A stretch of 64,000 bases of DNA from NCBI GenBank assembly GCA_964599455.1, contig CAZREA010000002.1, positions 51,810 to 115,809 of the forward strand, given 5' to 3'. This document shows, in pieces, positions 16,833-63,275 of the stretch (position 1 is its first letter; each line of letters begins with the position of its first letter). The translations under genes and the position numbers were made by a program. This DNA comes from an uncultured Gammaproteobacteria bacterium. GTDB lineage: Bacteria > Patescibacteriota > Patescibacteriia > UBA9934. The notes beneath the pieces were generated by a model, which saw nothing but the letters and a program-made list of their open reading frames with translations, had not been told where the DNA came from and searched no databases.

Positions 16833-17279
16833 CCTCCCTTTACATCCCATTCTTCCAGGCCACCGGGTACAGACGCATCCAAGGCCAGCCGAATCTCCAG
16901 ACCCCTGGCTCGTACTGACCGTACCCTGAATTTTATGCGGAACCTGTCGCCGAATACAGGCTGGTTCCAAAATGGAATGCGGAGTGCTCGTCAATCCGCG
17001 CCGCACGCTCCGGCATTCAAGGGAAAACGGGATTCCGACGGCATATTGGGACTGCAAGAGATTTCGGCGATCCACCTTCGCCAAGGCTACGGTGGACGCA
17101 CTGGCCTACTTTCCGCTCACAGTTTACCAAAAAGTTGGACAAATAGAAGAGCGGCACCTGGGGAATACCGTCCTTCGTAGGAGGCAAAAACCAGATGCCG
17201 CGAGTCCGCTGCGCGGACGGACGGCCAAGGGACAAATCCCAAGGCCTCCGAGCGCCAAGCGTTCAAGTGCCGAGTATCA

Positions 17280-17415
17280 CTACCCGAGGGGAGGGACGGA
17301 GTAACCGGGGCGGTCGTCGCTCCGCCAACTGGCGAACAGCCTGACCTCACCGGAACCGGTGTGGCGGAGCACAACCACCACGCTCTGCCACTCCTCGCCA
17401 CCATTCTCGGGGACG
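17280..17415 (-). repeat. DGR variable repeat (VR) at the 3' end of the target gene
   Basis: Counterpart of the TR; VR carries C/G/A wherever TR has A (sense strand). It ends exactly at the target-gene stop codon (TAA, 17280-17282). The identical 28-nt GC-rich 3' segment cccgaggggagggacggagtaaccgggg is initiation-of-mutagenic-homing (IMH)-like. Confidence 0.85.
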
Positions 17416-18212
17416 TTAGCCTCATAGCCAGCGCAGTACCAGGCACAGGTCTTGTCGTAGTCGATGACGCCCACCCGCTTCGGGAACAACCACGCGAGCA
17501 CCAGGCCTTCGTCCGCGAGGGACTGGGCATTGCGCACCGACGTGACGTCTTTTCGCTTGCGGTTGGCCGAGAGGTCATTGATGATGACCCACTCGACGAC
17601 CGCGTGGTGTGTCTCATTGCCGTTGAGGAGCCGAAGGCGCTCCACGTCCTCGCCCTGATAAGGCATCGGCTTGGAGTGCAGCAGCTCCCAGCGCCAGTGC
17701 TTGGGGTGGACACGACGCATCGCTTCCCAGTGACGCTCGAAGGTAAGGTACACGCCCTCCGTGCCCTCGCCCCAGCGGATGCGGAGGCTGCGAAACGCAT
17801 CCTTGCCCTTGGGCCAGGCGGGAGCAGTATCGGCGAGCCGGAAGAACACGTCTTCAGTGATACCCCAGTTACCGGCCTCGTTCTGGGCACGAAGGGCGGC
17901 GAGCTGCTCGTCCACCGTCTGCTCGAATGGGTTGGCGTCGGCCTTCTGGTTCGCGGCCTCCACCACGAACTTCATCAGCTCGTCGTCGCCGAGAAGCTTG
18001 AGGAAGAGGGCCATGGAGCCGCCGAAGCGGAAGAAACGGCCGAAGAACTCATCGGCCTGACGGAGAAACACGTTCATCACGCACCTCGAAGCCATCTCTG
18101 ACCAGCCCACAGGAACGCGGCATGCGCCCCATGAACCCTGCCTCTGTTTATTGAGAATGGCGGTTTGGAGCCAAAAAAGCCACAAAACGCCATGCTCAAC
18201 TACGAGAAACAA
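17280..18212 (-). CDS. DGR target protein (variable C-terminus), GC-rich
   Basis: 310-aa ORF at about 60% GC whose last ~45 codons are the VR (…NGGEEWQSVVVVLRHTGSGEVRLFASWRSDDRPGYSVPPLG). N-terminal start uncertain; no obvious signal peptide; fold not recognised. Confidence 0.7.
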   Translation of the reverse strand: MFLVVEHGVLWLFWLQTAILNKQRQGSWGACRVPVGWSEMASRCVMNVFLRQADEFFGRFFRFGGSMALFLKLLGDDELMKFVVEAANQKADANPFEQTVDEQLAALRAQNEAGNWGITEDVFFRLADTAPAWPKGKDAFRSLRIRWGEGTEGVYLTFERHWEAMRRVHPKHWRWELLHSKPMPYQGEDVERLRLLNGNETHHAVVEWVIINDLSANRKRKDVTSVRNAQSLADEGLVLAWLFPKRVGVIDYDKTCAWYCAGYEANVPENGGEEWQSVVVVLRHTGSGEVRLFASWRSDDRPGYSVPPLG

Positions 18213-39304: not shown

Positions 39305-40603
39305 ATGCCTTCCCTCGCTACGGCTCCCAATCCTTGGCCTTTGCTCATTTGTATCGTCGGTCTTCTGTTCATTGCCGGTATCGCCTTTACGGCCGTATGT
39401 CTTTTGCAATTTATCAAGAGAAATCCTCATCTGAAAAAAATCGTCACCGTCATAACCCTCATCATTGCAATTGGTTTTGTGATCATGTTCGGATTGTCAC
39501 GTATCACAAAGACGAGTCAGGTTGTGGTTGTTGATGCAACCTGCAATATTCCCGGAGCAGATACGTTTACCAGGATTTTTCCAGGAAAGGTATGGATGAA
39601 AGATGTAACGAGTGGTGATATTTTTCCCTTGCGCTTCCCTACTGCAGGACCGGAAGGGAGTCGCATGAAAATTTTTGATCACGATGGAAAGCAAGTTAAT
39701 ACGTGGCACAGCTATACGTTTTGCGATCCCGATGCGCCATTTCCCGAGCAAGTCAAAGATATTTTTGATGCATCGCAACCGATCACCGTTACCTATAATC
39801 GTCTCGGCATTATCCGCTCTTGGCAACTAATCGAAGTAGTATCTCCCGATGCACTCGATGGAGAGATGAGCAATGGTCTTCCGGATTGGGTTGAAGGAAG
39901 TATGTCATTCAATGAATACACCGATCTCACCATCGATCTGAATGGCGATGATCGCAAGGAAAAGGTGACGCTTACTCTACACCCTGCAACGTCCGATGAT
40001 GAAGAATCGACCACTCTGACGATTGATAATCAAACGGTAAAAATTCCTGGAAGAAATCCCCAAGGCTATTTTGGTGTTGTCGATTTTGATACCAACGATC
40101 TCACGAAAGAAATCGCGGTGAGTGATCCTGGTCCAAGCGGCGACTATACGACGACATTTTATCGCTACGATGGTCAACGAATCATCGCGCTCGGAACAAT
40201 TTCTGGACTCTACGAAGCGATGCGTTTTGATGGAGAAGGCAAACTCACCACAAGCACCCGAGCACACATCTTGGATACTTGGTTCTATGACGACGAATAC
40301 GTACTCTCAAACAATGTTCTCGTGCGGCAAGAAAAAGAATTTTATGCACGCGTCAATCATCAGAATCCAGTAACGGTTTTATCATCCATAACCTTGCGTC
40401 TTTCGCCACTTGAAGATCAGACTATTTTCACCGTTGAGCCGGGAGAAGTCGTGATCATCACGGGATGCGATGACATCGAGTGGTGCGCACTCATAAACGA
40501 TAAAGGCATGCAGGGATGGTTTTCACTCAAACAATATGGACTCGTAGGAGAAGATGCGGTTTCAGCAGATACGCTTTTTAATGGCTTGTCGTGGGCGGAT
40601 TAA
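39305..40603 (+). CDS. hypothetical membrane protein with a C-terminal SH3b-like segment
   Basis: Two N-terminal TM helices; the C-terminal CDDIEWCALINDKGMQGWFSLKQYGL is SH3b-like. Confidence 0.4.
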   Translation: MPSLATAPNPWPLLICIVGLLFIAGIAFTAVCLLQFIKRNPHLKKIVTVITLIIAIGFVIMFGLSRITKTSQVVVVDATCNIPGADTFTRIFPGKVWMKDVTSGDIFPLRFPTAGPEGSRMKIFDHDGKQVNTWHSYTFCDPDAPFPEQVKDIFDASQPITVTYNRLGIIRSWQLIEVVSPDALDGEMSNGLPDWVEGSMSFNEYTDLTIDLNGDDRKEKVTLTLHPATSDDEESTTLTIDNQTVKIPGRNPQGYFGVVDFDTNDLTKEIAVSDPGPSGDYTTTFYRYDGQRIIALGTISGLYEAMRFDGEGKLTTSTRAHILDTWFYDDEYVLSNNVLVRQEKEFYARVNHQNPVTVLSSITLRLSPLEDQTIFTVEPGEVVIITGCDDIEWCALINDKGMQGWFSLKQYGLVGEDAVSADTLFNGLSWAD

Positions 40604-41514
40604 CTATGGAGCTTCCCTCTCAGATAAAAAATCTCTATTGCCATTGGGATCATCATACCGGAGGTGTGCATGAGACTCGAGAGAAGAGCTCTATACTCAT
40701 TCCCGACGAGCTCAAATGGTTCATTCATGAACGACTCGACATCTGGAAAAAGAAAACAGATAGCGAAGCGCCGCCGTATACAACCGATCCAATTTTATCC
40801 AAGTATCGTTTTTGTAATATCTTTCGCGAGTTTGATCGACAGACCATTGAGTTTCATACGCTTCTCAATCCTATTCGAGATAACTTTCCGCTCTGGCTTT
40901 TGAACATGTTTTATTGTCGGATGGTGGCACGAACTTCAACCATTAAACAGGTGGGGTTGTTGTCATTTGATGAAAAGATAAACGCGATTCGGTTGCAAAA
41001 ACTGCTCAACTCACCACGACCACGGTTCGGGACCCCGTACGTTTTCCCTATCAGTGTCATTCAAAAGAGTTCAACACCAACACGCGAGCTTTTTATTACT
41101 TCGTACTTGCCAAAAATCATATCTGCAATTGCTAACGAGATTCAAACCTGGAAAAAGATGTCGGTATACGATGGCGTTGCTCGCATCTTGCCCTTATTCG
41201 GATTCAATCTGCATTTCTTGTGGACCGAAGTGCTTATCGACGTCGCTTACCAATATCCGGAACACATTGATCTCTTTGCGCGTTTCCCGGTCGGACCTGG
41301 AGCACTGCCAACATTCCGTAGACTTGCTCCGCATCAAGATCCGAGTCTGCTTGCATCCGAACTCGCTTGCATACCCCTCGACACCAACATTACTATCAAT
41401 GGCAAACCCTTACGATTATCCGCAGAAAATTGGGAAGGTATCGGCTGCGAGTTTCGGAAATATACGAATCTCAAGCAAGGGAAAGGAAGAAAGAGGGTTT
41501 ATCAAAAAGAATAA
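40591..41514 (+). CDS. hypothetical protein
   Basis: 307-aa ORF; family not recognised. Confidence 0.35.
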   Translation: MGGLTMELPSQIKNLYCHWDHHTGGVHETREKSSILIPDELKWFIHERLDIWKKKTDSEAPPYTTDPILSKYRFCNIFREFDRQTIEFHTLLNPIRDNFPLWLLNMFYCRMVARTSTIKQVGLLSFDEKINAIRLQKLLNSPRPRFGTPYVFPISVIQKSSTPTRELFITSYLPKIISAIANEIQTWKKMSVYDGVARILPLFGFNLHFLWTEVLIDVAYQYPEHIDLFARFPVGPGALPTFRRLAPHQDPSLLASELACIPLDTNITINGKPLRLSAENWEGIGCEFRKYTNLKQGKGRKRVYQKE

Positions 41515-44831: not shown

Positions 44832-45380
44832 TTGAAACATGTTATACTTTCTTCAGCTATGGAGGCAGTTGATCAACAAGGAATTCCTCAGGATCCCGAT
44901 GCCATTGATGCGGGTGATATTTTGTTATGGTGGAAAAGCTGGGAATATCCGCCCGTTGAACGGCCGACCAAGTGGTATGCCGTTGCTGCGGGTATTGGCT
45001 TGGGGTGTTTACTTTATGCCATGATGACGGCGAATTTTGTATTTGCACTCATTGTTATTATGTTTGCCGCCATTGTCATGGTTCGCGACATGCGTAAACC
45101 TCAAAAAACCACAACCTATATTACAAGTGAGGGAGTCGTCTTTAATGAGCAACTCTATCGATTTAAAGATATTCAGGATTTTTCCATTGTCTACGAACCA
45201 CCGGAAGTAAAAAATCTCTATCTTTCTTTTAACCGCGCCTTTCGTCCTGTGCTTTCCATTCCCTTAGAAGAAGCCAATCCTAACATCGTTCGCGCTTCCC
45301 TTTTACCGTTTATCTACGAGAATCTTGCACGCGAAAGCGAAAGCTTGACGGATACCCTCCGCCGCGTGTATAAATTGTAG
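44832..45380 (+). CDS. hypothetical membrane protein
   Basis: 182 aa; two central TM helices. Confidence 0.4.
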   Translation: MKHVILSSAMEAVDQQGIPQDPDAIDAGDILLWWKSWEYPPVERPTKWYAVAAGIGLGCLLYAMMTANFVFALIVIMFAAIVMVRDMRKPQKTTTYITSEGVVFNEQLYRFKDIQDFSIVYEPPEVKNLYLSFNRAFRPVLSIPLEEANPNIVRASLLPFIYENLARESESLTDTLRRVYKL

Positions 45381-45438
45381 CGTTGTTTGGCCATTTTCTT
45401 CGTTTTTAGAGAAAGAAAATGGCGAGCGAAACGTTGTC

Positions 45439-45538
45439 ATTTGGAGATAGTTTTTGTCCGAAGAGCGAGGACCGGCGAGGCGTACTACCCATGTACGGTG
45501 AGCCGGCCGCAGCGATGAGGGCAAAAAATAGCCCAAAT
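45439..45538 (+). ncRNA. candidate structured small RNA/leader element, copy A (paralog at 62255-62356)
   Basis: About 100 nt, ~90% identical to copy B. Differences fall in hairpin loops or as compensatory pairs (ccgGc/gCcgg versus ccgAc/gTcgg). Hairpins gtcc-loop-ggac, cgtac-loop-gtacg and gggc-aaaaaata-gccc. Lies 17 nt upstream of tRNA-Arg. Strand assumed. Confidence 0.45.
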
Positions 45539-45555
45539 GCCGACGTTTCGATAAT

Positions 45556-45632
45556 GCGCTCGTAGCTCAGTTGGATAGAGCATCAGCTTGCGGAGCTGAG
45601 GGTCGCACGTTCGAGTCGTGCCGAGCGCACCA
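45556..45632 (+). tRNA. tRNA-Arg, anticodon read as GCG, CCA encoded
   Basis: Acceptor gcgctcg/cgagcgc; D-loop with A20; anticodon stem tcagc/gctga with loop tTGCGGa; T-arm gcacg-TTCGAGT-cgtgc; discriminator A. Confidence 0.75.
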
Positions 45633-45719
45633 GCTCTCTTGATTGTACATAGGTAGAATCCAGGGAAAGAAAAAAGACTCCTGTTCGGGGGTCTTTTTGT
45701 TTGTCGCCACTTTCAGAGA

Positions 45720-50756: not shown

Positions 50757-51449
50757 TCACGTGGCACTGCCGTAAGCAAGGGTGAGAACTTCGATTCGCT
50801 TTGCACCTGCTGCTTGTAATGCCAAAGCTGCTGCGGTGGCCGTTGAGCCGGTTGTCCACACATCATCCACAAGCAGAATCGTTTTTTCTCGAACCATATC
50901 AGGCTTTACACAAAGAAAAGGTTGTTCGGTGATAATCGCGACTCGTTCCTGTTTGTCCTTTTGCGCCTGCGCCTTGCCCGGAGTCCGTGTCAGGACATCA
51001 CAAACAGGTTTTTGCAGAAAATCCCCTACCCCATCCGCTATGGTTCTCGCTTGATTAAAACCTCGCTCGGCCTGTTTTTGTGGAGCTAACGGAACAGGAC
51101 AGATGCAATCACTATCGCCAAATAGTGACCCAACCTGTTCTCTTTCTAAATGTTCTTTCGTTAAAAACCATAACAGTTCAATACCCTGTTTATCTCCACT
51201 ATATTTATAAGCTTGCAACAATTGACGTACGGTTGGTGATCCATACGGAAAAAATGCCTGTACTCGGGCAATTGGCTCGGGAATCTCGGTTGGATGCCAG
51301 ATATTTTTCGGTCTTTCAAAGACATCAGTACATGATCGACAGAGCAAATCTCCTTCCGTCCCACAGGTAACACACTGCCGCGGGAAACAGGCATCAAGAA
51401 GCAAGGTCCACCAACGACCTATTCCCAACGATATTGCGCGACCTTCCAT
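50757..51449 (-). CDS. comF: ComF family protein (phosphoribosyltransferase-like competence protein)
   Basis: N-terminal C4 zinc finger (CVTCGTEGDLLCRSC) and a C-terminal PRTase motif ILLVDDVWTTGST. Confidence 0.75.
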   Translation of the reverse strand: MEGRAISLGIGRWWTLLLDACFPRQCVTCGTEGDLLCRSCTDVFERPKNIWHPTEIPEPIARVQAFFPYGSPTVRQLLQAYKYSGDKQGIELLWFLTKEHLEREQVGSLFGDSDCICPVPLAPQKQAERGFNQARTIADGVGDFLQKPVCDVLTRTPGKAQAQKDKQERVAIITEQPFLCVKPDMVREKTILLVDDVWTTGSTATAAALALQAAGAKRIEVLTLAYGSAT

Positions 51450-52003
51450 GTGGTATCGGCTTTGACAAGCACAAGAACAATTTCTTGATAACGAACTTCG
51501 GCATTCCCCGGATTGCCTCGCGCTTCATTGCGTTGCGTTTGGATACGCAGAGTCATTTCTGTATCGGTTTGGGAAACGGTTTTGGTACTCATAACCGTCG
51601 TTGAGATGCCATAATATCCGCCTTCAAGACTCTCTTCACTCTTACGGGAATCTTCGGCATTGCGTTCAAGCTCGGCACCAAGCTGATCGGTCACCAAACT
51701 CAAGACATCATGAATATTTTCGTAATTACTTTCTGATGAATAGCTGCCGAGACGCTCGACAAACGTGCGCGCCACAGTGGCCGGAGCCGTGACCTTGGGT
51801 GTGCTGGAAACGGTTGCGGGCGTGGTGGTATCGGTGGAAGTTGTCGGTTGGTCTTCGTTTGTTGGCAGAGTCTGTGTATTATCTGTTTCTGTGGTCTCAA
51901 CCTTAGCTTGTGGAGAGAATAAGAAAAGCCATAGCAATAAACCGATAAGGCCAAGTAGCAAAATAAGTGCCAAAACAATTTCGATAATGCGTTTGCGTTC
52001 CAT
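51419..52003 (-). CDS. hypothetical membrane-anchored protein (possible VirB8-like T4SS component)
   Basis: N-terminal TM, a Thr/Pro-rich linker and a ~100-aa globular C-terminus; lies at the edge of the T4SS-like cluster. Confidence 0.35.
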   Translation of the reverse strand: MERKRIIEIVLALILLLGLIGLLLWLFLFSPQAKVETTETDNTQTLPTNEDQPTTSTDTTTPATVSSTPKVTAPATVARTFVERLGSYSSESNYENIHDVLSLVTDQLGAELERNAEDSRKSEESLEGGYYGISTTVMSTKTVSQTDTEMTLRIQTQRNEARGNPGNAEVRYQEIVLVLVKADTTWKVAQYRWE

Positions 52004-52006
52004 AGA

Positions 52007-53938
52007 TTATACGTTGGATGGCGAAGATTCGCTTTGTTGCGATTGACGGAATTCTTCACGGGCACGTTCTTGTTGCAGAAGTTGCTCAGGATTTGTGGTG
52101 ATGAGTTGATCTTCCGTATACGAGGCTACCACCTTAATCGCTGCATGCTTTTGGCCGGCAAAGAAAATGCCCTCTCCAACGGCCGCTTCAAGCAACAAAT
52201 ACTTTTCATTTTGCGTAAGATTGAACGTACGCGCTACTAAATCAACGGCGGCCGGGGCTTGTTTGAGAAGAATCTGCAGCGATGAGTTTGTCACGATCGC
52301 TTGACCGTATTGTGAAGTAAGAAAATCGTTAACGTCTTGGGTAATGGTGGTGACGCCAAGATAGTATTTACGCGCGCGTTTGGCGAGCGCAAAAATAAAC
52401 TTGGCCGAATCTTCATTTTGCATGAGCCACCATGCTTCATCAATCACGAGAATACGCTTCTTTCGTTCAGAACGCACCACATTCCAAATGTAATTCACGA
52501 TAGTGTAGATGGCCATCGGTCGCAATTCATCTTCCAAATCACGCACAGAAAAAACCACCAGTTGATTGCGCATCTGTACGGTTGTAGGAGAATTCAGCAA
52601 GCCTGAAAATGTTCCGGTAGCATACTTTTCAATACGCGCCACCAAATTTTCTCCACCTTGCATACCCTGTAAAATATCCATGAGATCTCCCAAAACCGGA
52701 TAGTTCTCTACATTTACAAGCGATGGTAAATCGGGCGTAATATCTTTTTTGGCATATGCCTCCAACAAGGCACGATCGAGCATACTATCTTCCTCTGGTG
52801 TAAATCCCAACACCCCTCGCTCCCCCATCGGTTTACCAATCATGATACGCAAAAGACCCTTAAGCGTAATAACGGCACTGCGCAAAATATCATCAACAGA
52901 TGTTTCTTCACCTTTAGGACGAGGAAGATCAAAGGGATTCACTTTGGCTTCTGAAGCCAAGGAAACATTAATAAACGTACCCCCAACCGCATCGGACAAT
53001 TGGCGATATTCCATTTCCGGATCAATGACAATAACATCGGTTCCCATCATGAGTGAACGTAAGATTTCGAGTTTTACCGTATAGCTTTTACCGGCACCGG
53101 AACTGGCAAAGACGACGGTGTTCGCATTTTGTAACGAAAAACGATCAAATAAAATGAGCGAGTTATTGTGACGATTGATGCCGTATAAAATACCATTGTC
53201 ACTGGTAACATCAGACGAGGTGAACGGAAATGACGACGCAATCGGCGACGTGTTCATGTTAAAACTAATCATGAGTTCGTCGTTGCACAGCGGCAGCGTG
53301 GAATTAAAACCTTGTTCGGATTGATAAAACCCGCGCTTACTGTACATGAGCTTGGTGCCGAAAATCGATTCGATCTCTTCAGTTCGTTTATCCAGTTCTT
53401 CTTTACTTTTGGCGTACACGGTCACGTAAAACGCAAATTGGAAAAAATGTTCGATGCCTTGGGTTAAATCATCACGAAGCTGTTCGACATCGCGCAAGGC
53501 CGTTTCTTGAATAGGATCACGAGGCTTTCCCGTGTCGTGATCGGAGACGATTTGCGACTCGATGATACCGACTTTATCGCGCAGCTGCTTGAGAATAACT
53601 TCGGGTGGAATGGGATAAAAATACATCCCCATATCAATCGTTCCTTTGTAATTGATAATGGGTCCTCCCCATCCAATTCCCACATAACGAGGGTAAGCGG
53701 TCACAAAAAGCGTACGTACGTACCGATCGCCTAGGATAAGAAAATTTGGCTGCACGTCAAACGATGATGGTGCAATCAAATCACGAATAGAAACGGTACC
53801 GCGTCGATAAGTGCGCTCTTCTTCGAGCGTGGTTTTTTCTTCAACGCTGCGCAGCTCTTTATCGGATAATACGCGCTGCGTGCCGGCTTTGGCTGCAGCT
53901 GCCTGCTGCCGTTTGAGATCTTCAATGTTAAACGACAT
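52007..53938 (-). CDS. virB4: VirB4/TraE-like conjugal-transfer ATPase, C-terminal (ATPase) part
   Basis: Walker A ASSGAGKSYT, IDPEMEY and DEAW (Walker B); AAA_10/DUF87-like architecture. Confidence 0.8.
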   Translation of the reverse strand: MSFNIEDLKRQQAAAAKAGTQRVLSDKELRSVEEKTTLEEERTYRRGTVSIRDLIAPSSFDVQPNFLILGDRYVRTLFVTAYPRYVGIGWGGPIINYKGTIDMGMYFYPIPPEVILKQLRDKVGIIESQIVSDHDTGKPRDPIQETALRDVEQLRDDLTQGIEHFFQFAFYVTVYAKSKEELDKRTEEIESIFGTKLMYSKRGFYQSEQGFNSTLPLCNDELMISFNMNTSPIASSFPFTSSDVTSDNGILYGINRHNNSLILFDRFSLQNANTVVFASSGAGKSYTVKLEILRSLMMGTDVIVIDPEMEYRQLSDAVGGTFINVSLASEAKVNPFDLPRPKGEETSVDDILRSAVITLKGLLRIMIGKPMGERGVLGFTPEEDSMLDRALLEAYAKKDITPDLPSLVNVENYPVLGDLMDILQGMQGGENLVARIEKYATGTFSGLLNSPTTVQMRNQLVVFSVRDLEDELRPMAIYTIVNYIWNVVRSERKKRILVIDEAWWLMQNEDSAKFIFALAKRARKYYLGVTTITQDVNDFLTSQYGQAIVTNSSLQILLKQAPAAVDLVARTFNLTQNEKYLLLEAAVGEGIFFAGQKHAAIKVVASYTEDQLITTNPEQLLQQERAREEFRQSQQSESSPSNV

Positions 53939-53941
53939 AGG

Positions 53942-54643
53942 TTAAGACAGTTTGGTTTCAAGTTGCAGCTTCGCAATCTCTTCGAGTGGTTGCGTATCGG
54001 CAACTTCAGGATTATAGGTGTTGTAATACAACTCAATAAGGCCCTGCGTATCAAGGAGCGCCACCGCAAGTCCCATACTTTCCAAGCCACCTCCAATCAT
54101 CTCTGCTCTACGCATGAGTCGTTCGTGGCGTTCGGCAAATTGCTTGGCATTGAGCTTTACTACTGAAGCCGGTGAGATGGCTGTTTGGACCTTAGCGAAA
54201 AAACCTTTGCCTTTTTCGCCCGATTCCGAAGGATCGTAGGGAATAATCACAAAAAAACGCTTTTGCATGATTTCTCCCAAATCGACCAGTTCTTTAATAA
54301 ACGAAACGTAATCGCGAATTTGTGTTTTTAACAGCTCGTTGGCAATGGTTTCTTCTTGTGATTTTAACTTTGCAAGATAGCCATCAATATTCATTTTGCG
54401 CGATTGAATGCAAATCTGAATTGGATGTTCGAGCGTATTTAAAAACTGCATGTAGCCTTGAATAACCGCTTGTTGTTCGTCGTCACTTTTGAGGGCAAAA
54501 TTGATACTGGAAACCATGAGCACACTGCGCATGGTGCCGTCTTTCATGACCACGGCATTTTCACGAATTTCGGCAATATCCAAAAAACGTTGCGTGGGAG
54601 GAGCGAATTTTGGCTTGGTCATGGTAGTGCTCGTTTTTGCCAT
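53942..54643 (-). CDS. VirB4-like N-terminal domain encoded as a separate ORF (split gene or pseudogene)
   Basis: FLDIAEIRENAVVMKDGTMRSVLMVSSINFALKSDDEQQAVIQGYMQFLNTL resembles the VirB4/PrgJ N-terminal region. Its stop TAA is separated by 3 nt (CCT) from the ATG of the ATPase ORF. Confidence 0.5.
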   Translation of the reverse strand: MAKTSTTMTKPKFAPPTQRFLDIAEIRENAVVMKDGTMRSVLMVSSINFALKSDDEQQAVIQGYMQFLNTLEHPIQICIQSRKMNIDGYLAKLKSQEETIANELLKTQIRDYVSFIKELVDLGEIMQKRFFVIIPYDPSESGEKGKGFFAKVQTAISPASVVKLNAKQFAERHERLMRRAEMIGGGLESMGLAVALLDTQGLIELYYNTYNPEVADTQPLEEIAKLQLETKLS

Positions 54644-54652
54644 ACAAAAATA

Positions 54653-55099
54653 TTATCTTCCCTCTTCTTCATCACTGCGATAAACGCCACCCGTATTCAC
54701 AACGAGCGTTAACTCAGACAAACGCGACGTTTCCAATGGACTTTTGACCGGACGTTTTTCCACAGCGGCGGCAATATCCTTTTTTAAATAGACGCGTAAA
54801 TCAGCATCAGACAGCGTTTTATCCCAAATACGACGAGCAGGTTTTTTGATCGTCTGAAAAACATTTAACACAATAAAATGCAACGGTTGCCCATTCACTT
54901 TACCAAAGGCAAAAGCTGCACCAAGCCCAGCAACGGGCAATCCAACGGCAAGCATGGCCACGACATTTAAAAAGATGCGATAAATAATAAATTCAGTCAC
55001 GATCACGCCGACCATGATAATAAATTGTCGCAAGGTAATCGGACCAAGAATTTTTGGCTCGACATCAAGAAATTGTGGCACGACAAATTGCTGAGGCAT
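54653..55099 (-). CDS. PrgI/VirB3-like small T4SS membrane protein
   Basis: Start taken at the internal ATG at 55099 (MPQQFVVPQFLDVEPKILGPITLRQF...) followed by two TM helices, matching the PrgI family layout. Confidence 0.5.
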   Translation of the reverse strand: MPQQFVVPQFLDVEPKILGPITLRQFIIMVGVIVTEFIIYRIFLNVVAMLAVGLPVAGLGAAFAFGKVNGQPLHFIVLNVFQTIKKPARRIWDKTLSDADLRVYLKKDIAAAVEKRPVKSPLETSRLSELTLVVNTGGVYRSDEEEGR

Positions 55100-55221
55100 G
55101 AGGGAAGTATAGCAGAAGGGAGAGAGGGGATTGAGGGAAAAGGATAAGGAATGTTTTTGAGGAGGTTTTAAGGAGGAATCAGGTGATAAAACATCACAAA
55201 TCATCCACATCTTCTCTCCCC

Positions 55222-57171
55222 TCAAAACCGCAGTCGCTCGTTTAACCCCGACAACGCCTTTACTTCGGCGGGGCCCAGGCTTTCGTCGCCCTTGGCGCGC
55301 AAACGCGCAGCAATCTCGGCGATAGCAACTGCATTTTGTAACGATTCGGTCATCATGCGCACGTATACTGTTTGCAGCGGGCTTTTGCGCCAAGCTAAAA
55401 TACCACGAACCCGTTCTTGATAATCACTTTTTTCCAGCGTTTCCAACAATGATTCAATTTTTCGCACCGCTTCTTCGGGTTGTGGCGATAAACGACGAAA
55501 ATCTGCCAGATTCATGGAGGCAAGTTGCTCAATAGGCCCCATGAGCTTGTTGCCCGGAACGACATCAGCAACTTTCTTTTGCTGCGCAGGCTCTGTCACC
55601 GGTGGCACACTGCCTTTGGTTAGCATTACTTTTGCGGGTGCGGGTTTTACCTCTTGTGCACGCGCCGTTGCCGCCGTTGCCTGTGCCGCTCGTTCAGCAT
55701 GGGCGTCGCGTGCACCCGAAACTTGCGCGCCAGGAAGAATGGGCGCGATGGAATCCGTAGGCAGCGAACCGGTAAGCGCGGCAAATTTCTTATCAAGCAT
55801 TTCCGCTTCTTGCAGTTCGATGCGATCAGCATCACGCTCGGCTATTTCTTCATCTTTCCCATCAACCGCAGAAACGGCTTCACCCGCCAAGCGATACATT
55901 TCTAATCCCGCCTTTATAGCCTCTAGAAGAAGAGGCAAGTGTGCGCCTTTCACTCGATAATCTCTCTCTAAAATATCGTGTGTTTGATACAGATCACGAA
56001 TACCTCGCAACGTTTTTCCTGCGATATCAGCAAAAGCTGCACGCGGTAATTGTACTTCATCAAGTGTGGCCCCGGCTTTTTCTAAAATATTATCGATCGC
56101 CTTGGCGAAAGCACCTTGCAACGCTTCGGCATGAGTTTTGTAGAGCTTCTTTGCAAGCTTCACATCAGCGATATCGGGCTGCGCGATTGCGTCATCCTGA
56201 CTCTTCTTTGTAGCGGGGCGAGTGCGCGAGGGATCTATCGTGCCCTTCCCAACGCTCTGTTTCTTCGGTTGTTCATGCAAAATCTCACCGCTAATTACGG
56301 GAACCTGGGCTGCAACGGCATGCGTGGGCATGATTTCGAGAGCGTGGTCGGGGGGGGTGATGATGGGCGCTGGTTCGGCCGCATCTGATGCCTTTTCCCC
56401 TGCGGCAAGGGAGACGGGTCGGCTTGCCCTGAGCGACGGCGAAGGGCGACCCGTCTGTACGTCGACAGAAGGCGCATCATGTCCGCTATCCGTTTTACTT
56501 GCCCTCCGAAGCTCGAGTGTCGGTGAGAGCGTAGGAGGGTCCGTTTTTGATCCGTCCTTATCCGTTCCTACTTCCCCCAACTCCACGCCATTAATCTCCT
56601 CCCCCAATATCTTCATTACTGCGTCATTCTGCTCTTTCGATAATCCCAATCCACCAATATTCAACGATCGACCAAAAAAGGTTCGTAAACTGTCATCAGT
56701 TTTTTGACCCGCGAGGCGTTGTTCGAGCAAAAAAGCCAAACGTTTTATGAGCACATCCGAAAATTGCACATTTGCTTTTTGAGCAATACGCTCGGCAAAT
56801 TTCTCAGACGTAATCCGTTCTTTTTCAACACGAAGCGCGGGATACGCTTTCACATCTCCACCCCAGGCAACAATTTGCTTTTCAACACCAGGAAGATATT
56901 TCTCCAAGGGCAGCAATCGATATCCCGCCACATCAGCAGCAATCTGTTTGGCTTTTTCTTCATCAATCGCAAACGCTTCTGCAATCATGGTAGGCATGTC
57001 GGCTAAAGGAAGTTGGTCGTCGAGAATAGCATCAGCGAGATCGAGAAACTCATTCGTCCGATCTTCGGGGAGTTGATATTTTTGAACGAGTTCATCCAAG
57101 ACATCATAAATTTGCCCATCCTGAAGAAAAGCACGAGTCGATGAAATATTCAGCAGTTTTGCTAAAACCAT
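55222..57171 (-). CDS. hypothetical protein in the T4SS-like cluster
   Basis: 649 aa with no recognised motif; contains RPE-like copy 3 in the opposite orientation (encoding GTDKDGSKTDPPTLSPTLELRRASKTDSG). Confidence 0.5.
   Translation of the reverse strand: MVLAKLLNISSTRAFLQDGQIYDVLDELVQKYQLPEDRTNEFLDLADAILDDQLPLADMPTMIAEAFAIDEEKAKQIAADVAGYRLLPLEKYLPGVEKQIVAWGGDVKAYPALRVEKERITSEKFAERIAQKANVQFSDVLIKRLAFLLEQRLAGQKTDDSLRTFFGRSLNIGGLGLSKEQNDAVMKILGEEINGVELGEVGTDKDGSKTDPPTLSPTLELRRASKTDSGHDAPSVDVQTGRPSPSLRASRPVSLAAGEKASDAAEPAPIITPPDHALEIMPTHAVAAQVPVISGEILHEQPKKQSVGKGTIDPSRTRPATKKSQDDAIAQPDIADVKLAKKLYKTHAEALQGAFAKAIDNILEKAGATLDEVQLPRAAFADIAGKTLRGIRDLYQTHDILERDYRVKGAHLPLLLEAIKAGLEMYRLAGEAVSAVDGKDEEIAERDADRIELQEAEMLDKKFAALTGSLPTDSIAPILPGAQVSGARDAHAERAAQATAATARAQEVKPAPAKVMLTKGSVPPVTEPAQQKKVADVVPGNKLMGPIEQLASMNLADFRRLSPQPEEAVRKIESLLETLEKSDYQERVRGILAWRKSPLQTVYVRMMTESLQNAVAIAEIAARLRAKGDESLGPAEVKALSGLNERLRF
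56483..56576. repeat. RPE-like palindromic element, copy 3, in frame inside the 55222-57171 gene, inverted orientation
   Basis: The plus strand reads ccgctatccgttttacttgccctccgaagctcgagtgtcggtgagagcgtaggagggtccgtttttgatccgtccttatccgttcc, the reverse complement of the copy 1 form. Confidence 0.7.
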
Positions 57172-57177
57172 ACCTCC

Positions 57178-60100
57178 TTAGGTCATGTAGCGGTCAGCAG
57201 CACGATAGGCATTACGAAGATCATTCAGACGTTTCATTTCAGCTTTACCTGCACCACCTGGATCTATAACCGTTGCACGATGGGTACGCAACGTTTGATC
57301 GATAACCGACATCGCTTCTTTAATAGCTGTCTTTCTTCCCACATCCGTTTCAGCACGCATCATATCTCCGAGCTTCTGGATCTCCTGAGGAGTCAACCCT
57401 CGTATTACCGTATTTGTTACATCATTTCTAGTTGTTGCTGCAAAAGCACTTGATACCGCAGGTGCAAGTTGTCTTACCGCGGAAGGATCAGCCTGAATAA
57501 CCTGTTGCACTCGTAACTGTGCGTCGCGAGGAACAGCAAATGCAGGATTTGAAGCTGCATTCAAATCAAGACGAGGGATGAGATCACCAAGATTTTTACC
57601 TGCGAGCAATAATTTCTTACGAATAGCATTAGCGTCATCCATACTAATAGCCGATCTCGTCTCCATATCTTCAAGCTGTGCTTGAATTTCATCGTGTACC
57701 GCGCTACTTGTTTTTCGAAGATCAACATCAGCTTTAGCCATTGCCAAGACTGCATTATCGGCATTTGGGCCCATAAAATGATAATCTCGCAAATCAGATT
57801 CGTCGACCTGTTTATTTTTATATGCCTCAACAAGATTATCAGATTCTTGAGTAGCAAAAGCCTGCGTAACAAAGGTGTTTCTTACATCGGCAGTCGTAAT
57901 GCTCGGCGACATTCCCGGAGGCGCCACTCTCGCCGCTTCTGCTACTTCTTCAGCCGCCATGTCCTCAGATCGAGTTCCGGCCTTAATCAAGGCTTGGACA
58001 ACGCTTACATTAATAGGCGGCCCCACGACACCAGGCGCGGGAGTTGAAGAAGTGGTATTTCCAAGATCTGCTAACGTTACCGATCGAGCACCTCCACGCT
58101 TGTACAGATCAGTCAGACGATCTGTATCGCCAGCATTCCTTGCACTTGGTAATGCAGGAGCGATTTTTGAAGAACCATATGCACCACGAGCCAATTCATC
58201 CCATTTAGAAATATTCTTTCCGCTTTCGGTTTTGGCGTAAGAAGCCTTAAGTGCCGCGATCACCGCTGGATCTCCTACGGCTTCATCACGCATGACGCGA
58301 GGATCAAAATCTGGAGAATCGATAAAGGCTTGTGCCTTAGCTGCATCAACCTCCATGTATTTATCGATAAATTGAGAGCGTGCCTTCTTCCAATCGCCAT
58401 CATCAAGTAAACGATGATCTTTATCGTGGTCGTATTCCGCAAGAATACCTTTCGCAAAATTCTCTGCATGCTGTTTGCCATTTCTATCTCGTTTCTCACT
58501 AGCATCTCTAAACTTCTTGAATAATTTGGCATCTTTGAGCATTTCTGCCTGCAAATTTCTTGCAATCGCATAATCTTCTTGGGTTTTTGGCTGTACACCT
58601 CTACTTATCTGATGCAAACGCTCAAGCTTGACATCTTCTGTCATGCCCGCAATAGCTTCCTTTGCCTTTTTATTTTCAGGCTCATCTAAATGATGAAGAG
58701 CTCCGTAGGCCGCAGTACCTGCATTCATGATAGTGGTTGAGCCCAGGAAGGCACCGGCACCGGTCAATTTCTTTGCAGACCATGCACCTGCAGTTCTTGC
58801 GCCGCGAACAGTACTATCAAACGGATGCTCGGCAACAGAAGCACTTTTCGCAACGAAACGAGCAGTTTTAGATAAACCTCCCGTTCCCACAGTTCGTTCA
58901 AGACCTGCCGCAGTAAGATTTCCACCAACACGCGTAAGTGTTGCTGGAACCGCCAAACCCGCCCGTGCCACCCGTCCGCCAATACGAGCACTCGTACTCA
59001 TCACGCGCCTGCCCATTTTTTCGTTGATAACCTTCCCTGCCAAACCGCCCAATTTGCTCGACCACTGAGCCGATTCTTTCATGCCCACTAACAAGAAGAC
59101 AACGCCCAGCAGTAAGCCCGTGAGATTGCTTGATTCAAAAATTTCCAAATACAACTGACCATAGGTCGTGCGCTTTTCTGGTTCGGGGAAACTTTCGGTT
59201 TGAGCAAGGTTGCCATTTGAGGCTGCGGCTAAGGACAACCACAAGAAAAAGGCGAGCATCGGGCCCAGAACCAAGGCCGCAGTAAATTGCCCCATCCATT
59301 GACCCCAAAAACTTCCCAAAAAGCCAATAACTTCTTTTGATCCCCAGGCAAAAAATGCCAAAGGTGACATGATGACGGCAATCCACAACACAATAATGCG
59401 CCAAATAAAGGCAACGGCGAGGAGCACAATCACTACCATGACCGCACCTTGCACAATAAGTTTTCCGTAGGCATTGGCGATGTTGGAGGCAACAGAAATT
59501 GCGACGTCACCCGCTTCCGAAGCAGCTTCGAGCGTTGAAGCAGAATATTGCGAGGCTTGCGGCATGACGAGGAGCTGGGCAAAGTTTCCTGCCGCGATAT
59601 CGAGGAGTGCGTTTACGAACGTCATCATGACGATTTGACTTGCATCAATCGCCAAGCCACACACGGTACGACTGAAGTTCACAAGCACAACCGCGCCAAA
59701 CAACCGAGGCAATTGTTGATCCCAGCCACTACCTGTCTTAAAACCCACCATGGTTTTGACGGCGATGACCAATAACACGATAACCACACCCATGTTGACG
59801 ACATCACGGGTAAGCGTCCAGCCAAGAGTAACGATGTTGGAATTGGCAAAGTTGTTGTAGTTAAGCACCTGAATGACCACGACTTCTAACAACGTAATGG
59901 TGATGGAACCCAATCCGTTTGCCACCCAGTTCATGACCTGAGCAATGTAGCCACCAATCCAAATTCCCACTCCATCGGCAGTAGTCCAGGCAAGATTGGC
60001 CGAACCACCGGTATTTGAAGAAGCAGCATCTGCAGCTGCAGACGAAGAAACCGTCGTATCTTCTTGAGCAAAGGCGACAGTAGGTTGAGCAAGAAGAACA

Positions 60101-60249
60101 TTTCCTGCAAAAACAAAAGTGACTACGCTAAAACATGCGAGTGCAAGCATTCTCAACCTTGTCCTAAGCAACATAGATATCAGTAGTATAGCAGAGATGA
60201 AAGAACGAATGCGTGAAAAATGAAGTGAAGATGTGGACGCGCCTTTCAC
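57178..60249 (-). CDS. VirB6/TrbL-like polytopic membrane protein with a long C-terminal domain
   Basis: 1023 aa; signal peptide, about 8 TM helices, then a ~600-aa Ala/Lys/Asp-rich soluble tail; positioned within the VirB4/PrgI cluster. Confidence 0.45.
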   Translation of the reverse strand: MKGASTSSLHFSRIRSFISAILLISMLLRTRLRMLALACFSVVTFVFAGNVLLAQPTVAFAQEDTTVSSSAAADAASSNTGGSANLAWTTADGVGIWIGGYIAQVMNWVANGLGSITITLLEVVVIQVLNYNNFANSNIVTLGWTLTRDVVNMGVVIVLLVIAVKTMVGFKTGSGWDQQLPRLFGAVVLVNFSRTVCGLAIDASQIVMMTFVNALLDIAAGNFAQLLVMPQASQYSASTLEAASEAGDVAISVASNIANAYGKLIVQGAVMVVIVLLAVAFIWRIIVLWIAVIMSPLAFFAWGSKEVIGFLGSFWGQWMGQFTAALVLGPMLAFFLWLSLAAASNGNLAQTESFPEPEKRTTYGQLYLEIFESSNLTGLLLGVVFLLVGMKESAQWSSKLGGLAGKVINEKMGRRVMSTSARIGGRVARAGLAVPATLTRVGGNLTAAGLERTVGTGGLSKTARFVAKSASVAEHPFDSTVRGARTAGAWSAKKLTGAGAFLGSTTIMNAGTAAYGALHHLDEPENKKAKEAIAGMTEDVKLERLHQISRGVQPKTQEDYAIARNLQAEMLKDAKLFKKFRDASEKRDRNGKQHAENFAKGILAEYDHDKDHRLLDDGDWKKARSQFIDKYMEVDAAKAQAFIDSPDFDPRVMRDEAVGDPAVIAALKASYAKTESGKNISKWDELARGAYGSSKIAPALPSARNAGDTDRLTDLYKRGGARSVTLADLGNTTSSTPAPGVVGPPINVSVVQALIKAGTRSEDMAAEEVAEAARVAPPGMSPSITTADVRNTFVTQAFATQESDNLVEAYKNKQVDESDLRDYHFMGPNADNAVLAMAKADVDLRKTSSAVHDEIQAQLEDMETRSAISMDDANAIRKKLLLAGKNLGDLIPRLDLNAASNPAFAVPRDAQLRVQQVIQADPSAVRQLAPAVSSAFAATTRNDVTNTVIRGLTPQEIQKLGDMMRAETDVGRKTAIKEAMSVIDQTLRTHRATVIDPGGAGKAEMKRLNDLRNAYRAADRYMT

Positions 60250-60298
60250 AGTAAACAGAAAAACGGCTCGAGTACATGAAGTACCCGAGCCGCACGAT

Positions 60299-62191
60299 TC
60301 ATTCCGCGGTCACCGTCAGACCACAGCCATCCGACGTGGGATCGTCGGTGGGCGTGACGCCCATGTCGCAGCCGTCCCAGTAGGCGGTTGCCTCGCCCTG
60401 GACGGTGCCAGACGGAAAAGGCGCGAGGCACGACCAGCTCGTCGCGCCATCGATCACGAATTCGACCGAGAAGCGCAGGCTGTCGCCCGAGCTCATCGAA
60501 CGGGTATAGGTGATCGAGGTCGCATCCTCGACCTCGGCGAGTTCGCTGGTCCAACCCGAGCTGTCGCCCGAGGCATCGGTGAACTCGCCCGACAGGGTGA
60601 TGCGATCAGCACGCTCGGCGTCGGGCGTCGTCCAGGTGAGGACGAGCACGTCGCCGGTCGAGCCACAGGTGTCGGATTCGTCGCCTTCCTCGACATCGGA
60701 CGTACCGGATTCGTCAGCATCTTCCCCATCCGATTCGTCGTCCTCGTCTTGAGTGGGATCGGGCGTGCCCGACCCCTGCGACTCTTCCTCTTCCTCTTCC
60801 TCTTCCTCTTCCTCGAGCTCTCCCGCCGTTGTGTAGGTCAAGTCCTCTTCATCTGCCGCACATTCCGTAATTACTTCCGGACTCAGACAGTACAGATCCG
60901 TACTACAGCTGCCGGTGGTGCTCACGGCGTCCTCGAAGTCATCTTCGTCGACCTCGATGACGGTGCGGTTGCTGAAGCCGAGCATGAGGTACGTGTCCCA
61001 CGAGACAATCGGCATGGCGATACCATCACTCATGAGGTACACGTCGCTCTTGCCGATAGGCGACACCAGGCTGCCATCGCGATAGCTGGCCGTTCCCGCC
61101 TTCGGATAGTCGGCGATGATGCCGCCCTCGAAGTCGGTGTCGTACAACAGATCATCATAGGTCGAGGCGGTGATGCCCCAGCTTTTGAGGATGCCCTGCC
61201 AGCCCGAGGTCGGCACTTTCAGACGATAGCGCTCGCCGTCGTCGGTGGTGCCGAACAGCAGCCAGACGCTCGTCGACGAGCTTTCGCTCACGACGGCGAA
61301 AATCTGCGTGTCGTCGGCGATGCCCTCGCCTTCGCCCAGACAGGTGAGTTCATCGGTGGTGATCAGGGCGACGTTGTCGAAGTCATAGTTGCGGGTGAGA
61401 AACGAGGTCTCGGTGATGAAGGGGCGAGCACTGTCGCCGTCGATGAGGTAGACGGCCGCATCGTCCGGCGTCTTCACGAGCGTGCCGTTGGGGTGCATGC
61501 GCACCACCGGCAGTTGCGACTGGTACAGGTGTCCACGGGTGAGGTCGCAGGTCAGGTCCGTGACCGCAATCTCGTCGCTGTCGCCATCGGTTGTCATATC
61601 GGCAGTCACGAACGAAAGCCCCTTGATGGAAGCACCTTTTATGCCGTCCTTCGAGGCCGTGCCGCTGTGGCGACCGATATGGATGTGATCGCCGCTGGCA
61701 TTGCCAGTCTCGCCCTCGTAGGCAAGGAACTGCCCGGCGGCCACCTCGCTGCCGCTGTCGATGAAGATCTCGGACAGATGCCCCAGGATGATATAGGTGC
61801 CGTCGCCGAGATCGATGTTGATGTGGTAGCCGAAGTTGACGTCGGCATCGGTGTCGTGCACGTATGCCGTACCCGACACCGGCGCGAACACCGGTACATC
61901 GATATCGTTGGGCGTGTCAAAATCCGCGTCGTAGCGGGTGCTCGTGCCCGTATGCGAGTAGCTACCACCCGCACCTTGCGTGCACAGGTACTCCTCGCCG
62001 GCCGCGAAGGGCAGGTTGATGGTGATACTGTCTTCGCCACCGCCAGTAATGCCCGTATCCTGCGTGTCCGTAGGAATACTCACGACCGTCGGCGTACAGG
62101 AAACAATGAACAGACCGAGAAACGAAGGAATGGAACGTGTCATGGGAAGAACCCTCTTGAGGATGCGATCATCAGCGATCACCTTCCCCAC
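60299..62191 (-). CDS. M23 (LytM-type) metallopeptidase lipoprotein with a poly-Glu tract, GC-rich
   Basis: Lipobox LGLFIVSCT; M23 motifs HTGTSTRYDADFD and GETGNASGDHIHIG; (GAG/GAA)n at about 60783-60815 encodes nine Glu; about 60% GC. The start appears to be GTG. The antisense 658-aa ORF is judged spurious. Confidence 0.7.
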   Translation of the reverse strand: MGKVIADDRILKRVLPMTRSIPSFLGLFIVSCTPTVVSIPTDTQDTGITGGGEDSITINLPFAAGEEYLCTQGAGGSYSHTGTSTRYDADFDTPNDIDVPVFAPVSGTAYVHDTDADVNFGYHINIDLGDGTYIILGHLSEIFIDSGSEVAAGQFLAYEGETGNASGDHIHIGRHSGTASKDGIKGASIKGLSFVTADMTTDGDSDEIAVTDLTCDLTRGHLYQSQLPVVRMHPNGTLVKTPDDAAVYLIDGDSARPFITETSFLTRNYDFDNVALITTDELTCLGEGEGIADDTQIFAVVSESSSTSVWLLFGTTDDGERYRLKVPTSGWQGILKSWGITASTYDDLLYDTDFEGGIIADYPKAGTASYRDGSLVSPIGKSDVYLMSDGIAMPIVSWDTYLMLGFSNRTVIEVDEDDFEDAVSTTGSCSTDLYCLSPEVITECAADEEDLTYTTAGELEEEEEEEEEEESQGSGTPDPTQDEDDESDGEDADESGTSDVEEGDESDTCGSTGDVLVLTWTTPDAERADRITLSGEFTDASGDSSGWTSELAEVEDATSITYTRSMSSGDSLRFSVEFVIDGATSWSCLAPFPSGTVQGEATAYWDGCDMGVTPTDDPTSDGCGLTVTAE

Positions 62192-62254
62192 TCGTTGGAA
62201 GTCTTATGAAAGACGAGTGGGAAAAACGATTGCATTGCGTTACAAAACGATTTT

Positions 62255-62356
62255 ATTTGGAGATAGTTTCTGTCCTGAAAAGCGAGGACCGACGAGGCGT
62301 ACTGACGAAAGTACGGTGAGTCGGCCGCAGCGATGAAGGCAGAAAATAGCCCAAAT
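62255..62356 (+). ncRNA. candidate structured small RNA/leader element, copy B
   Basis: Paralog of 45439-45538; followed by a strong hairpin ggggcttgg...ccaagcccc and about 500 bp without a credible ORF. Confidence 0.45.
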
Positions 62357-62870
62357 AAAATCGTTTTGCATGGTTGCCCGGGGGCTTGGACTCCCCATTT
62401 CCAAGCCCCATTACAGGAATAATGTTTCGCCAATGCTGTCCCTATTGCCGTTATCTGCCGTTTTCAACGACCGCTCGACAGACTGACGCACACGAGAGAT
62501 GCATGAAGCGAAATGCAGTGTTGTGGTTATTGCGGTAACACGAACGTTCCTCCAAAGCGTCGCGACAGGCTTGTCGGCGCGTTCTGTTTCCATTTCAAAA
62601 TGAAACAGCGATCTCAACAAGAGATCGCCAGCAAAAAATGTGCGGCTTTTTCACGGTGTCGTCCGCACACGGGACAAAGATCTGTTTTTTCGCACCGACA
62701 CCCGGACAAAAACACCTCCAACCTTCCCATCGTTTCTTTCCACTGTCCGTGAACACCTGACACGAAAAGTGCCGCTGTCAGCCGGCACTGAACGGTGGAT
62801 AAGTTTTAGGGACAAAAAAATACAATCTTATGATTGCATTTTTTGTCTCATTATTTTTGTCTTCACTTCA

Positions 62871-63275
62871 TCACGCCATGCCTACATATTTTTTGACGGT
62901 TTGAATTTCTTCATGCAATTCATGATCAGCAGTATCAACATACGACATGACGTGGTCGGTAATCGCTTCGTTCACTTCGCTGACGATATCTTTTCTCAAT
63001 GAAACAAATTTTTCATCCATACGAGCCATGAGACGATTCTCTTGTGCAATAAATCGTCCATCCATCTCATCTCGAATATCACGTTTCAAATCTCGTCCGT
63101 GTTGTTCAAGAGCATCGTGAAGATCGATACGTAATCGCTTACCTTGATCAAGAAGTCGATTACTAAACCGTTCATCCATAATCCGAAACTGATCCATCAT
63201 CACTTTTTGGAAGCGATGAAGATCTTTAATCGTAACGTAAGCGTCTTGTCGTGCCTGTTTTCTTGTACCTGCCAT
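62871..63275 (-). CDS. hypothetical coiled-coil protein
   Basis: 134-aa Arg/Asp/Glu-rich helical ORF. Confidence 0.35.
   Translation of the reverse strand: MAGTRKQARQDAYVTIKDLHRFQKVMMDQFRIMDERFSNRLLDQGKRLRIDLHDALEQHGRDLKRDIRDEMDGRFIAQENRLMARMDEKFVSLRKDIVSEVNEAITDHVMSYVDTADHELHEEIQTVKKYVGMA

Follow-up and report, generated by a model that had tools for sequence, protein, structure and literature searches.

Two long hairpins in a 64-kb window and a candidate low-copy family of rod-shaped structured RNAs in Patescibacteria

A repeated hairpin element and its surroundings

The window, meaning the whole stretch of 64,000 nucleotides that was analyzed, harbors two copies of an element that folds into one long imperfect hairpin, referred to below as a rod. 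Copy A occupies positions 45427-45550 (124 nt) and copy B positions 62243-62368 (126 nt), both on the plus strand. A repeat of about 100 nt had been reported in the first-pass annotation, and both copies are present where it had placed them. The pair is listed as family D2 in our repeat scan and, together with a DGR repeat, constitutes the only such repeats in the window. The boundaries first assigned to the copies were too short: their flanks pair as an 18-bp closing stem (CGAAACGTTGTCATTTGG/CCAAATGCCGACGTTTCG in copy A and CAAAACGATTTTATTTGG/CCAAATAAAATCGTTTTG in copy B), and the similarity runs on into this stem on each side.

Copy A begins 48 nt past the stop codon of a 182-aa open reading frame and is followed on the same strand by a tRNA-Arg gene with anticodon GCG (45556-45632, plus strand; found by ARAGORN and scored at 68.1 bits by the Rfam tRNA model). 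This anticodon is uncommon for tRNA-Arg in bacteria relative to ACG. The element had been described as lying 17 nt upstream of the tRNA, which is arithmetically right for the shorter end, but 12 of the 17 nt belong to the closing stem and the true gap is 5 nt. A 9-bp hairpin with a 16-nt loop (GCCATTTTC/GAAAATGGC, 45390-45423, plus strand) lies 3 nt upstream of the rod. Further upstream, in the 3' end of the preceding open reading frame, a promoter-like TTGACG-18 nt-TATAAA was recognized by eye (45345-45374, plus strand); the promoter scan passed over this candidate because A occupies the sixth position of its -10 hexamer. Judged from its position, it could start a transcript spanning both the rod and tRNA-Arg. 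Downstream of the tRNA gene, sequence and fold indicate a terminator-like hairpin, GACTCC/GGGGTC followed by a T-run (45676-45698, plus strand), that was missed by the terminator scan. There is no T-run directly after copy A or copy B, and the possibility that the element itself is an intrinsic terminator was rejected on this ground. Logan assemblies from this organism or a related one are interrupted in the tRNA-Arg gene beside copy A (at the end of L001) and inside the rod of contig L118 (at the end of L120), which suggests that rod hairpins disturb short-read assembly.

Near copy B, ARAGORN found no tRNA and no recognizable promoter was seen. The copy and an M23-peptidase lipoprotein gene are divergently oriented, the copy being on the upstream side; this gene starts at 62143 and heads a T4SS-like cluster on the minus strand (51419-62143). 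The cluster further comprises a VirB4/TraG-like ATPase (52007-53938), a TraC-like gene, PrgI (54653-55393) and two large proteins of 649 and 1023 aa without assignment; the same cluster also adjoins the second rod of contig L188. An oriT or single-strand origin serving such genes was considered and rejected, as other copies have no such neighbors. Over the M23 gene, long open reading frames are present on both strands (60233-62209, plus, 658 aa; 60299-62191, minus, 630 aa), and GC content reaches 0.59 at 60000-62200, against 0.42-0.50 across most of the window. Copy B, too, is preceded by a 9-bp hairpin (62187-62221, 21 nt upstream), analogous and non-homologous to the one before copy A; the loops of the two measure 16-17 nt. 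The region after copy B (62370-62870) contains few open reading frames, a 10-bp hairpin GGGGCTTGGA/TCCAAGCCCC located 9 nt past the rod and two terminator-like sites on the minus strand (62630-62606 and 62789-62768). No relevant Rfam match was found at 62350-62900 (E≤5-10).

Elsewhere in the window, a DGR extends over 15251-18212. It includes a reverse transcriptase open reading frame (15251-16243, minus strand; RVT_1, E = 1.7e-21), a template repeat (16700-16832) and a variable repeat (17283-17415) at the 3' end of an open reading frame at 17280-18212 (minus strand), and the differences between the repeats fall where the template on the reverse transcriptase strand has A. With its own TR and VR and a distance of 30 kb, this reverse transcriptase led us to reject a retron or DGR RNA as an identity for the rods. 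The copies were likewise rejected as att sites of a genomic island: the repeats are 90% alike and not identical, lie 5' of a tRNA and have housekeeping genes between them. Two further features are a tRNA-Val(TAC) at 6670-6745, detected by ARAGORN and not reported by the Rfam tRNA model at gathering score, and an open reading frame at 40591-41514 with an HMUDK_hel domain (5-hmdU DNA kinase helical domain, E = 7.6e-14). The latter domain has its known role in the hypermodification of thymidine by phages, and one would not expect it in a chromosomal context.

Fold of the two window copies

When aligned, the two copies show a mean column identity of 91%, with 20 substitutions and two internal 1-nt indels. 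The indels shift every reading frame and the element is therefore non-coding; used as protein queries, the six frames of both rods had no match among 5.8 billion called proteins. Thirteen of the 20 substitutions fall in paired columns and seven in unpaired ones, three of these in the apical loop. RNAalifold predicts 41 pairs, of which six are fully compensated between the copies, one changes from G·U to A-U and none is broken. Among 200,000 random placements of 20 substitutions, six or more compensated pairs never occurred, and neither did zero broken pairs. The one compensation reported initially, a G/A change matched by a C/T change, is real (columns 52/81, G-C to A-U) and is joined by five others.

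RNAfold predicts a single long rod for each copy instead of the three hairpins originally proposed. One of the three, cgtac/gtacg, holds. The other two, gtcc/ggac and gggc/gccc, are replaced by a long-range helix, TTTTTGTCC/GGGCAAAAA, with a compensated pair of its own (T-A to C-G, columns 30/102). The predicted energy of copy A is -62.8 kcal/mol (z -8.3) on the plus strand and -45.4 on the minus strand; copy B reaches -60.8 kcal/mol (z -8.9) and is again more stable on the plus strand than on the minus strand.

From the base upward, copy A is composed of an outer stem (45427-45444 pairing with 45533-45550; four pairs compensated relative to copy B), the middle helix (TTTTTGTCC at 45451-45459 pairing with GGGCAAAAA at 45519-45527), an asymmetric internal loop with GAGGA on its 5' side (45467-45471) and CCGCAG on its 3' side (45507-45512), a helix designated P2 (45472-45506, formed by CCGGC at 45472-45476 and GCCGG at 45502-45506) and an apical hairpin, CGTAC/GTACG (45481-45497), whose loop is variable. 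In copy B the corresponding parts are GAGGA at 62284-62288, P2 as CCGAC/GTCGG at 62289-62293/62320-62324 and CCGCAG at 62325-62330, all on the plus strand as in copy A. The apical loop differs between the two, reading TACCCAT in one and TGACGAAA in the other. The middle helix of copy A is flanked by symmetric purine loops, with ATAG opposite ATAG; reading the alignment by eye, we found that the apparent internal loops of the window copies are such symmetric purine stretches (ATAG/ATAG, GAAGAG/GAUGAG and GA/GA). These stretches can form tandem G·A pairs, and the rod would then be nearly continuous in both copies.

Compensatory changes had been put forward as evidence of RNA structure, an argument that does not suffice here. 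Long DNA palindromes can also keep their arms complementary, via hairpin-templated repair or template switching. Accordingly, a selfish palindromic DNA repeat of the REPIN, ERIC, Correia or MITE type has to be weighed. Its core would be recognized in trans by a nuclease or transposase and it would spread intergenically; template switching templated by the hairpin would generate 'compensatory' changes without any RNA function, and the arms would lengthen until they met an essential gene, for example a tRNA. We regard this explanation as the main rival to an RNA reading, though an unlikely one. It fits the observation that the duplicated unit is exactly the hairpin, with similarity stopping at the base of the stem, and that assemblies break at or in the element. 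On the other hand, the non-Watson-Crick G·A pairs are kept in both window copies, a sign that the arms are not merely driven to perfect complementarity, and no transposase was seen near any copy.

Relatives with a conserved asymmetric core

The element has no match in Rfam 15, either at gathering score or at E≤10. In the whole window only tRNAs reach the gathering score, and the two 400-nt regions searched at E≤10 matched only snoRNA, miRNA and leader models, at chance level (10-27 bits). The initial description of a structured element without a known family is thus supported in outline, with fold and boundaries corrected.

Homologs exist outside this genome, and in them the structure is kept and the sequence changed. 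A covariance model, R1, was built from copies A and B only and scores these two at 146.9 and 159.7 bits respectively. In other Patescibacteria contigs it identified a rod at 7800-7679 of L118, the same as 13800-13679 of L188 (minus strand, 43 bits), a second copy in L188 (3651-3530, minus strand, 38 bits), a more distant rod in L149 (10694-10783, plus strand, 32 bits), one in L140 (8421-8290, minus strand, 29 bits) and two in L010, namely L010a (2063-2158, plus strand, 28 bits) and L010b (3880-3975, plus strand, 13.7 bits), the latter recognized by its core. Over 696 kb of DNA from outside CPR, R1 gave no match at E≤1, although those loci had been chosen for containing both loop strings. The family as collected has about nine members from fragments of a few genomes, and at least two copies are present in the genomes of the window, L188 and L010. 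About 410 kb of CPR metagenome contigs, gathered via a YecM alignment, gave only the L140 and L149 members, and the element is therefore low-copy, with a density of roughly 1 per 90 kb of sampled CPR DNA.

Several other searches were carried out. An exact-pattern scan of species-representative genomes with AGCGAGGACN{25,50}CGCAGCGATGA, whose lower gap bound of 25 may miss short-tipped members, returned 115 stretches, all of them chance matches in high-GC genomes except for Patescibacteria contig L010. A relaxed motif-plus-stem scan gave 99 matches versus 53 in a reversed-sequence control, which amounts to noise. Two viral pattern scans yielded chance matches inside open reading frames only (L002 and L125). 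No match was obtained with copy B by blastn against phages and plasmids, which speaks against a selfish repeat. The stem arms gave no match in phages either, and no stem arm had a second site among the window and the loci sampled. Synteny was followed via the neighboring YecM gene, around which gene order is not conserved. The window is from a Patescibacteria genome: homologs of its YecM are named Uhrbacteria, Parcubacteria and Patescibacteria, with the nearest relative 68% identical. Other hairpins came to light in these contigs. In L147 (2688-2753) a rod hairpin starts at the 3' end of tRNA-Ser(GGA), and the CCAGCGAGATGA in its center, together with a GGTCG/CGACC helix there, recalls the rod family; a sequence similar to it lies downstream of tRNA-Ser(tga) in L146. 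A second, unrelated REP-like hairpin family, beginning GTCATTCYGAG… or GTCATTGCGAGGAG…, recurs across Patescibacteria contigs (L132, L136, L138, L140 and L161).

A core, 5'-Y-GAGGA-Y…short helix…CCGCAG-3', recurs in every clear relative, with CCGGAG in place of CCGCAG in L140. GAGGA is invariant in copies A and B, L140, L118/L188, L010a and L010b. From 5' to 3' the common layout consists of the stem, Y-GAGGA-Y, 0-3 nt, a P2 of 5 bp, a variable loop or hairpin, P2', 0-2 nt, CCGCAG and the returning stem. Within the core, GG pairs with CC and the Y before GAGGA pairs with the last G of CCGCAG; this Y-G pair and the next pair outward are found in six of six members. P2 covaries, being CCGGC/GCCGG in copy A, CCGAC/GUCGG in copy B, GGUCG/CGACC in L140, GUUCG/CGAGC in L010 and GUUUG/CGAGU in L118. 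In a hand-made ungapped alignment of the family, counted by script, standard pairs occupy 77% of cells in register versus 38-49% once the 3' partner has been shifted by 1-3 columns, and 21 of 25 pairs have changed on both sides. Members measure 89-127 nt, with 10-11 bp on the apical side. A K-turn pattern can be drawn by eye for copy A (GUCC-GAA-GA… / …UGA-GGGC) and not for copy B, L118 or L010b.

The enclosing stems are 25-40 bp long and often perfect, with energies of -82 kcal/mol in L118 and -86.6 kcal/mol in the second L188 copy. Their outer parts are shared only by the two window copies; no sequence relationship is seen when L010a is compared with L010b, L140 with the window or L118 with L010. 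The pairing of the long helix is conserved, and its sequence is not. Similarly, the two L188 rods have cores identical over 54 nt and stems only about 60% alike that are still paired. In L148 (938-1032), CCGCAGCG precedes GCGAGGA, so that the core strands occur in swapped order within a hairpin with a 20-bp stem and the two-strand loop is circularly permuted. Several known elements were compared with this architecture and dropped: an integron attC site, which is expected to have R''/R' boxes at its ends and a variable center, the opposite of the pattern seen; a sarcin-ricin-loop mimic, as only GAGGAC is common to members; hammerhead, twister and other ribozymes, as there is no three-way core; and an H/ACA-like guide.

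The relatives also bear on the palindromic DNA repeat. Perfect stems of 30-40 bp would be expected of such a repeat, and near-perfect ones of 33-40 bp are seen; equally expected would be the non-syntenic sites, the presence or absence of rods at orthologous positions between relatives and the way in which rods fill intergenic gaps and abut stop and start codons and tRNA ends. For example, a rod lies upstream of a 388-aa gene in L188 and is absent upstream of the homolog of that gene in the window genome. Against it stand the low copy number, the lack of any target-site duplication or shared junction motif at the ends of seven copies inspected by eye, and the conservation of the center and not the termini, which is the opposite of MITEs defined by terminal inverted repeats.

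Strand preference, tRNA linkage and comparison with known systems

The strand reading GAGGA to CCGCAG folds better than its complement in seven of eight members. Transition mismatches in the stems, scored on this strand, comprise 18 G·U versus 4 A·C (16:4 without the part shared by the L188 copies), a bias toward one strand that a process acting on double-stranded DNA does not predict. Most members adjoin no tRNA, and three end about 3-5 nt 5' of a tRNA gene on the same strand: copy A, the L140 rod, 3 nt before tRNA-Pro, and the L149 rod, which sits between two tRNA-Ser genes and 2-5 nt before the second. Taken together, the G·U excess, the tRNA linkage and the better fold of the core strand point to a single-stranded, probably RNA, function of that strand, with RNA as the favored reading and not a shown one.

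The same placements could be accounted for by a purely cis-acting hairpin, that is, a leader or spacer helix that serves RNase III or RNase P processing, insulation or end protection and gives rise to no independent product. The fixed short distance in tRNA leaders and spacers and the occupation of short gaps between genes would agree with this, and a tRNA with a comparable flanking helix is indeed found in L183, from the same DNA sample. There (145-262), tRNA-Gln is enclosed by a helix of its 5' and 3' flanks that continues past the acceptor stem for about 17 bp (-56.3 kcal/mol, z -7.2), which suggests that long processing-type stems around small RNAs may be used in this lineage. Even so, we consider a purely cis-acting role quite improbable. 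A helix of this kind would need no conserved, asymmetric core of 40-50 nt across distant genomes, identical within a genome, and with no U-tract after the rod it would not be an intrinsic terminator. Moreover, in three protein-gene contexts (L010a, L010b and the second L188 copy) the core strand is antisense to the flanking genes. This orientation counts against the RNA reading as well, as these copies would need promoters of their own.

Set beside the observed fold and its conservation, the conserved core, the wobble bias of one strand, the tRNA adjacency and the absence from Rfam, the element is most likely a small structured RNA, and we give about even chances to the fuller reading that copies A and B belong to an undescribed, low-copy, rod-shaped structured-RNA family of Patescibacteria (CPR). 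Under this RNA reading, the strand reading GAGGA to CCGCAG would be transcribed. In the tRNA-linked members, copy A included, the rod would be transcribed together with the tRNA, as its 5' leader or as a spacer, and its end 3-5 nt before the tRNA gene suggests release by RNase P, whose cut at the tRNA 5' end would free the rod with a tail of 3-5 nt. RNase III would probably then trim the long perfect stems. The stem would act as scaffold or processing helix, and the conserved internal loop as the functional surface, possibly one on which a protein or another RNA docks. A broader proposal is that these are CPR-wide small RNAs, punctuated by tRNAs and trimmed at their stems, in which the receptor-like GAGGA/CCGCAG loop is the handle of a new candidate RNP. 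This we hold to be possible but doubtful; within it, the permuted form in L148 would mean that selection acts on the two-strand loop as a module in its own right.

Should the broader proposal prove true, it would add an RNP or RNA-docking system that is new for bacteria, in organisms with minimal genomes. Patescibacteria account for a large part of bacterial diversity, and almost none of their non-coding RNAs are known. What makes the element unusual is a conserved asymmetric loop carried on stems that are free to vary, its occurrence in several lineages and its repeated placement 3-5 nt 5' of tRNAs. If it is an RNA, it offers a concrete handle on a new RNA-protein partnership and would indicate that these reduced genomes produce small RNAs by way of tRNA processing. 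If it is instead a selfish palindrome, it serves as a warning that perfect compensatory changes between two copies alone do not prove RNA structure.

Among known systems, rod-shaped housekeeping RNAs come to mind by shape. In 6S RNA, too, the 5' and 3' ends pair to form a rod interrupted by internal loops, and paralogs occur in some bacteria. The strings GAGGAC and GCAGC loosely recall SRP domain IV. A divergent 6S RNA or small SRP (4.5S) RNA is nevertheless close to refuted. Rfam yields no match even at E≤10; SRP RNA is single-copy, whereas the genomes here carry two or more copies, and the apical loop is variable and not a GNRA tetraloop. At 89-127 nt the rods are also shorter than 6S RNA (about 150-200 nt), which has a large open central bubble with long helices to either side, as against only 10-11 bp on the apical side of the rods. 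In the window copies, G·A pairs can close the 'central bubble', and L118 and L010b lack it altogether, so no open bubble is conserved. At the level of the loop, the 11-nt GAAA-tetraloop receptor offers a likeness in geometry only, with an asymmetric 3x2 loop closed by CC/GG and, at its other side, by a G-Y pair. The receptor reads CC-UAA-G / U-AU-GG and the rod CC-GCA-G / Y-GA-GG; the loop bases differ and no tetraloop partner was identified.

Small RNAs matured by tRNA enzymes include plant dicistronic tRNA-snoRNA genes, the tRNA-pre-miRNA units of MHV68 and bacterial sRNAs derived from tRNA spacers. As in the tRNA-linked rods, a hairpin RNA abuts a tRNA and cleavage by RNase P or RNase Z sets its end. 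These RNAs are usually found 3' of the tRNA or are unstructured spacers, whereas the rods lie 3-5 nt 5' of it. REPIN, ERIC and Correia elements have conserved arm or terminal sequences and occur in tens to hundreds of copies, and their hairpins, when transcribed, can be RNase III substrates. They share with the rods the form of imperfect intergenic palindromes of 100-130 nt duplicated as whole hairpins. In the rods, by contrast, it is the center that distant genomes have in common, the arms vary freely and copies are few.

In published work, the stem-loop TIGR arrays of CPR come closest in architecture: their stems vary, bases beside the loops are conserved and a 5-bp hairpin separates two spacers (PMC12045711; bioRxiv 10.64898/2026.09.09.750476). 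Both systems belong to CPR/Patescibacteria, both have stems that diverge even between neighboring units and conserved bases near central loops, and an apex hairpin is possible in both. This raised the question of whether a rod could be an orphan stem-loop tigRNA for a Tas (Nop-domain) protein whose gene lies elsewhere in the genome, and L010a indeed holds CGAGGACCTGTTCG and CGAGCCCCGCAGCG, both perfect box C-9 nt-box D intervals, with 12 nt between them. We nonetheless judge this very improbable. Such a pair of intervals occurs in one of eight members and in 2.7% of shuffled cores; single intervals are found in L118, L010b and L148 (one each), and copies A and B, L140 and L149 have none. No Nop or Tas domain was detected among some 50 window open reading frames tested against Pfam, and a neighboring 353-aa protein is BNR/sialidase-like. 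TIGR units form tandem arrays next to tas, and their two spacers, each 9 nt long and variable, are bounded by box C (CNA) and box D (YG), whereas the rods are solitary, with the window copies 16.8 kb apart and no arrays. Finally, the segments that would serve as spacers (GGAC… and …CCGCAG) are the most conserved part of the rod and not a variable one, and the two halves of this center pair with each other, with covariation in P2.
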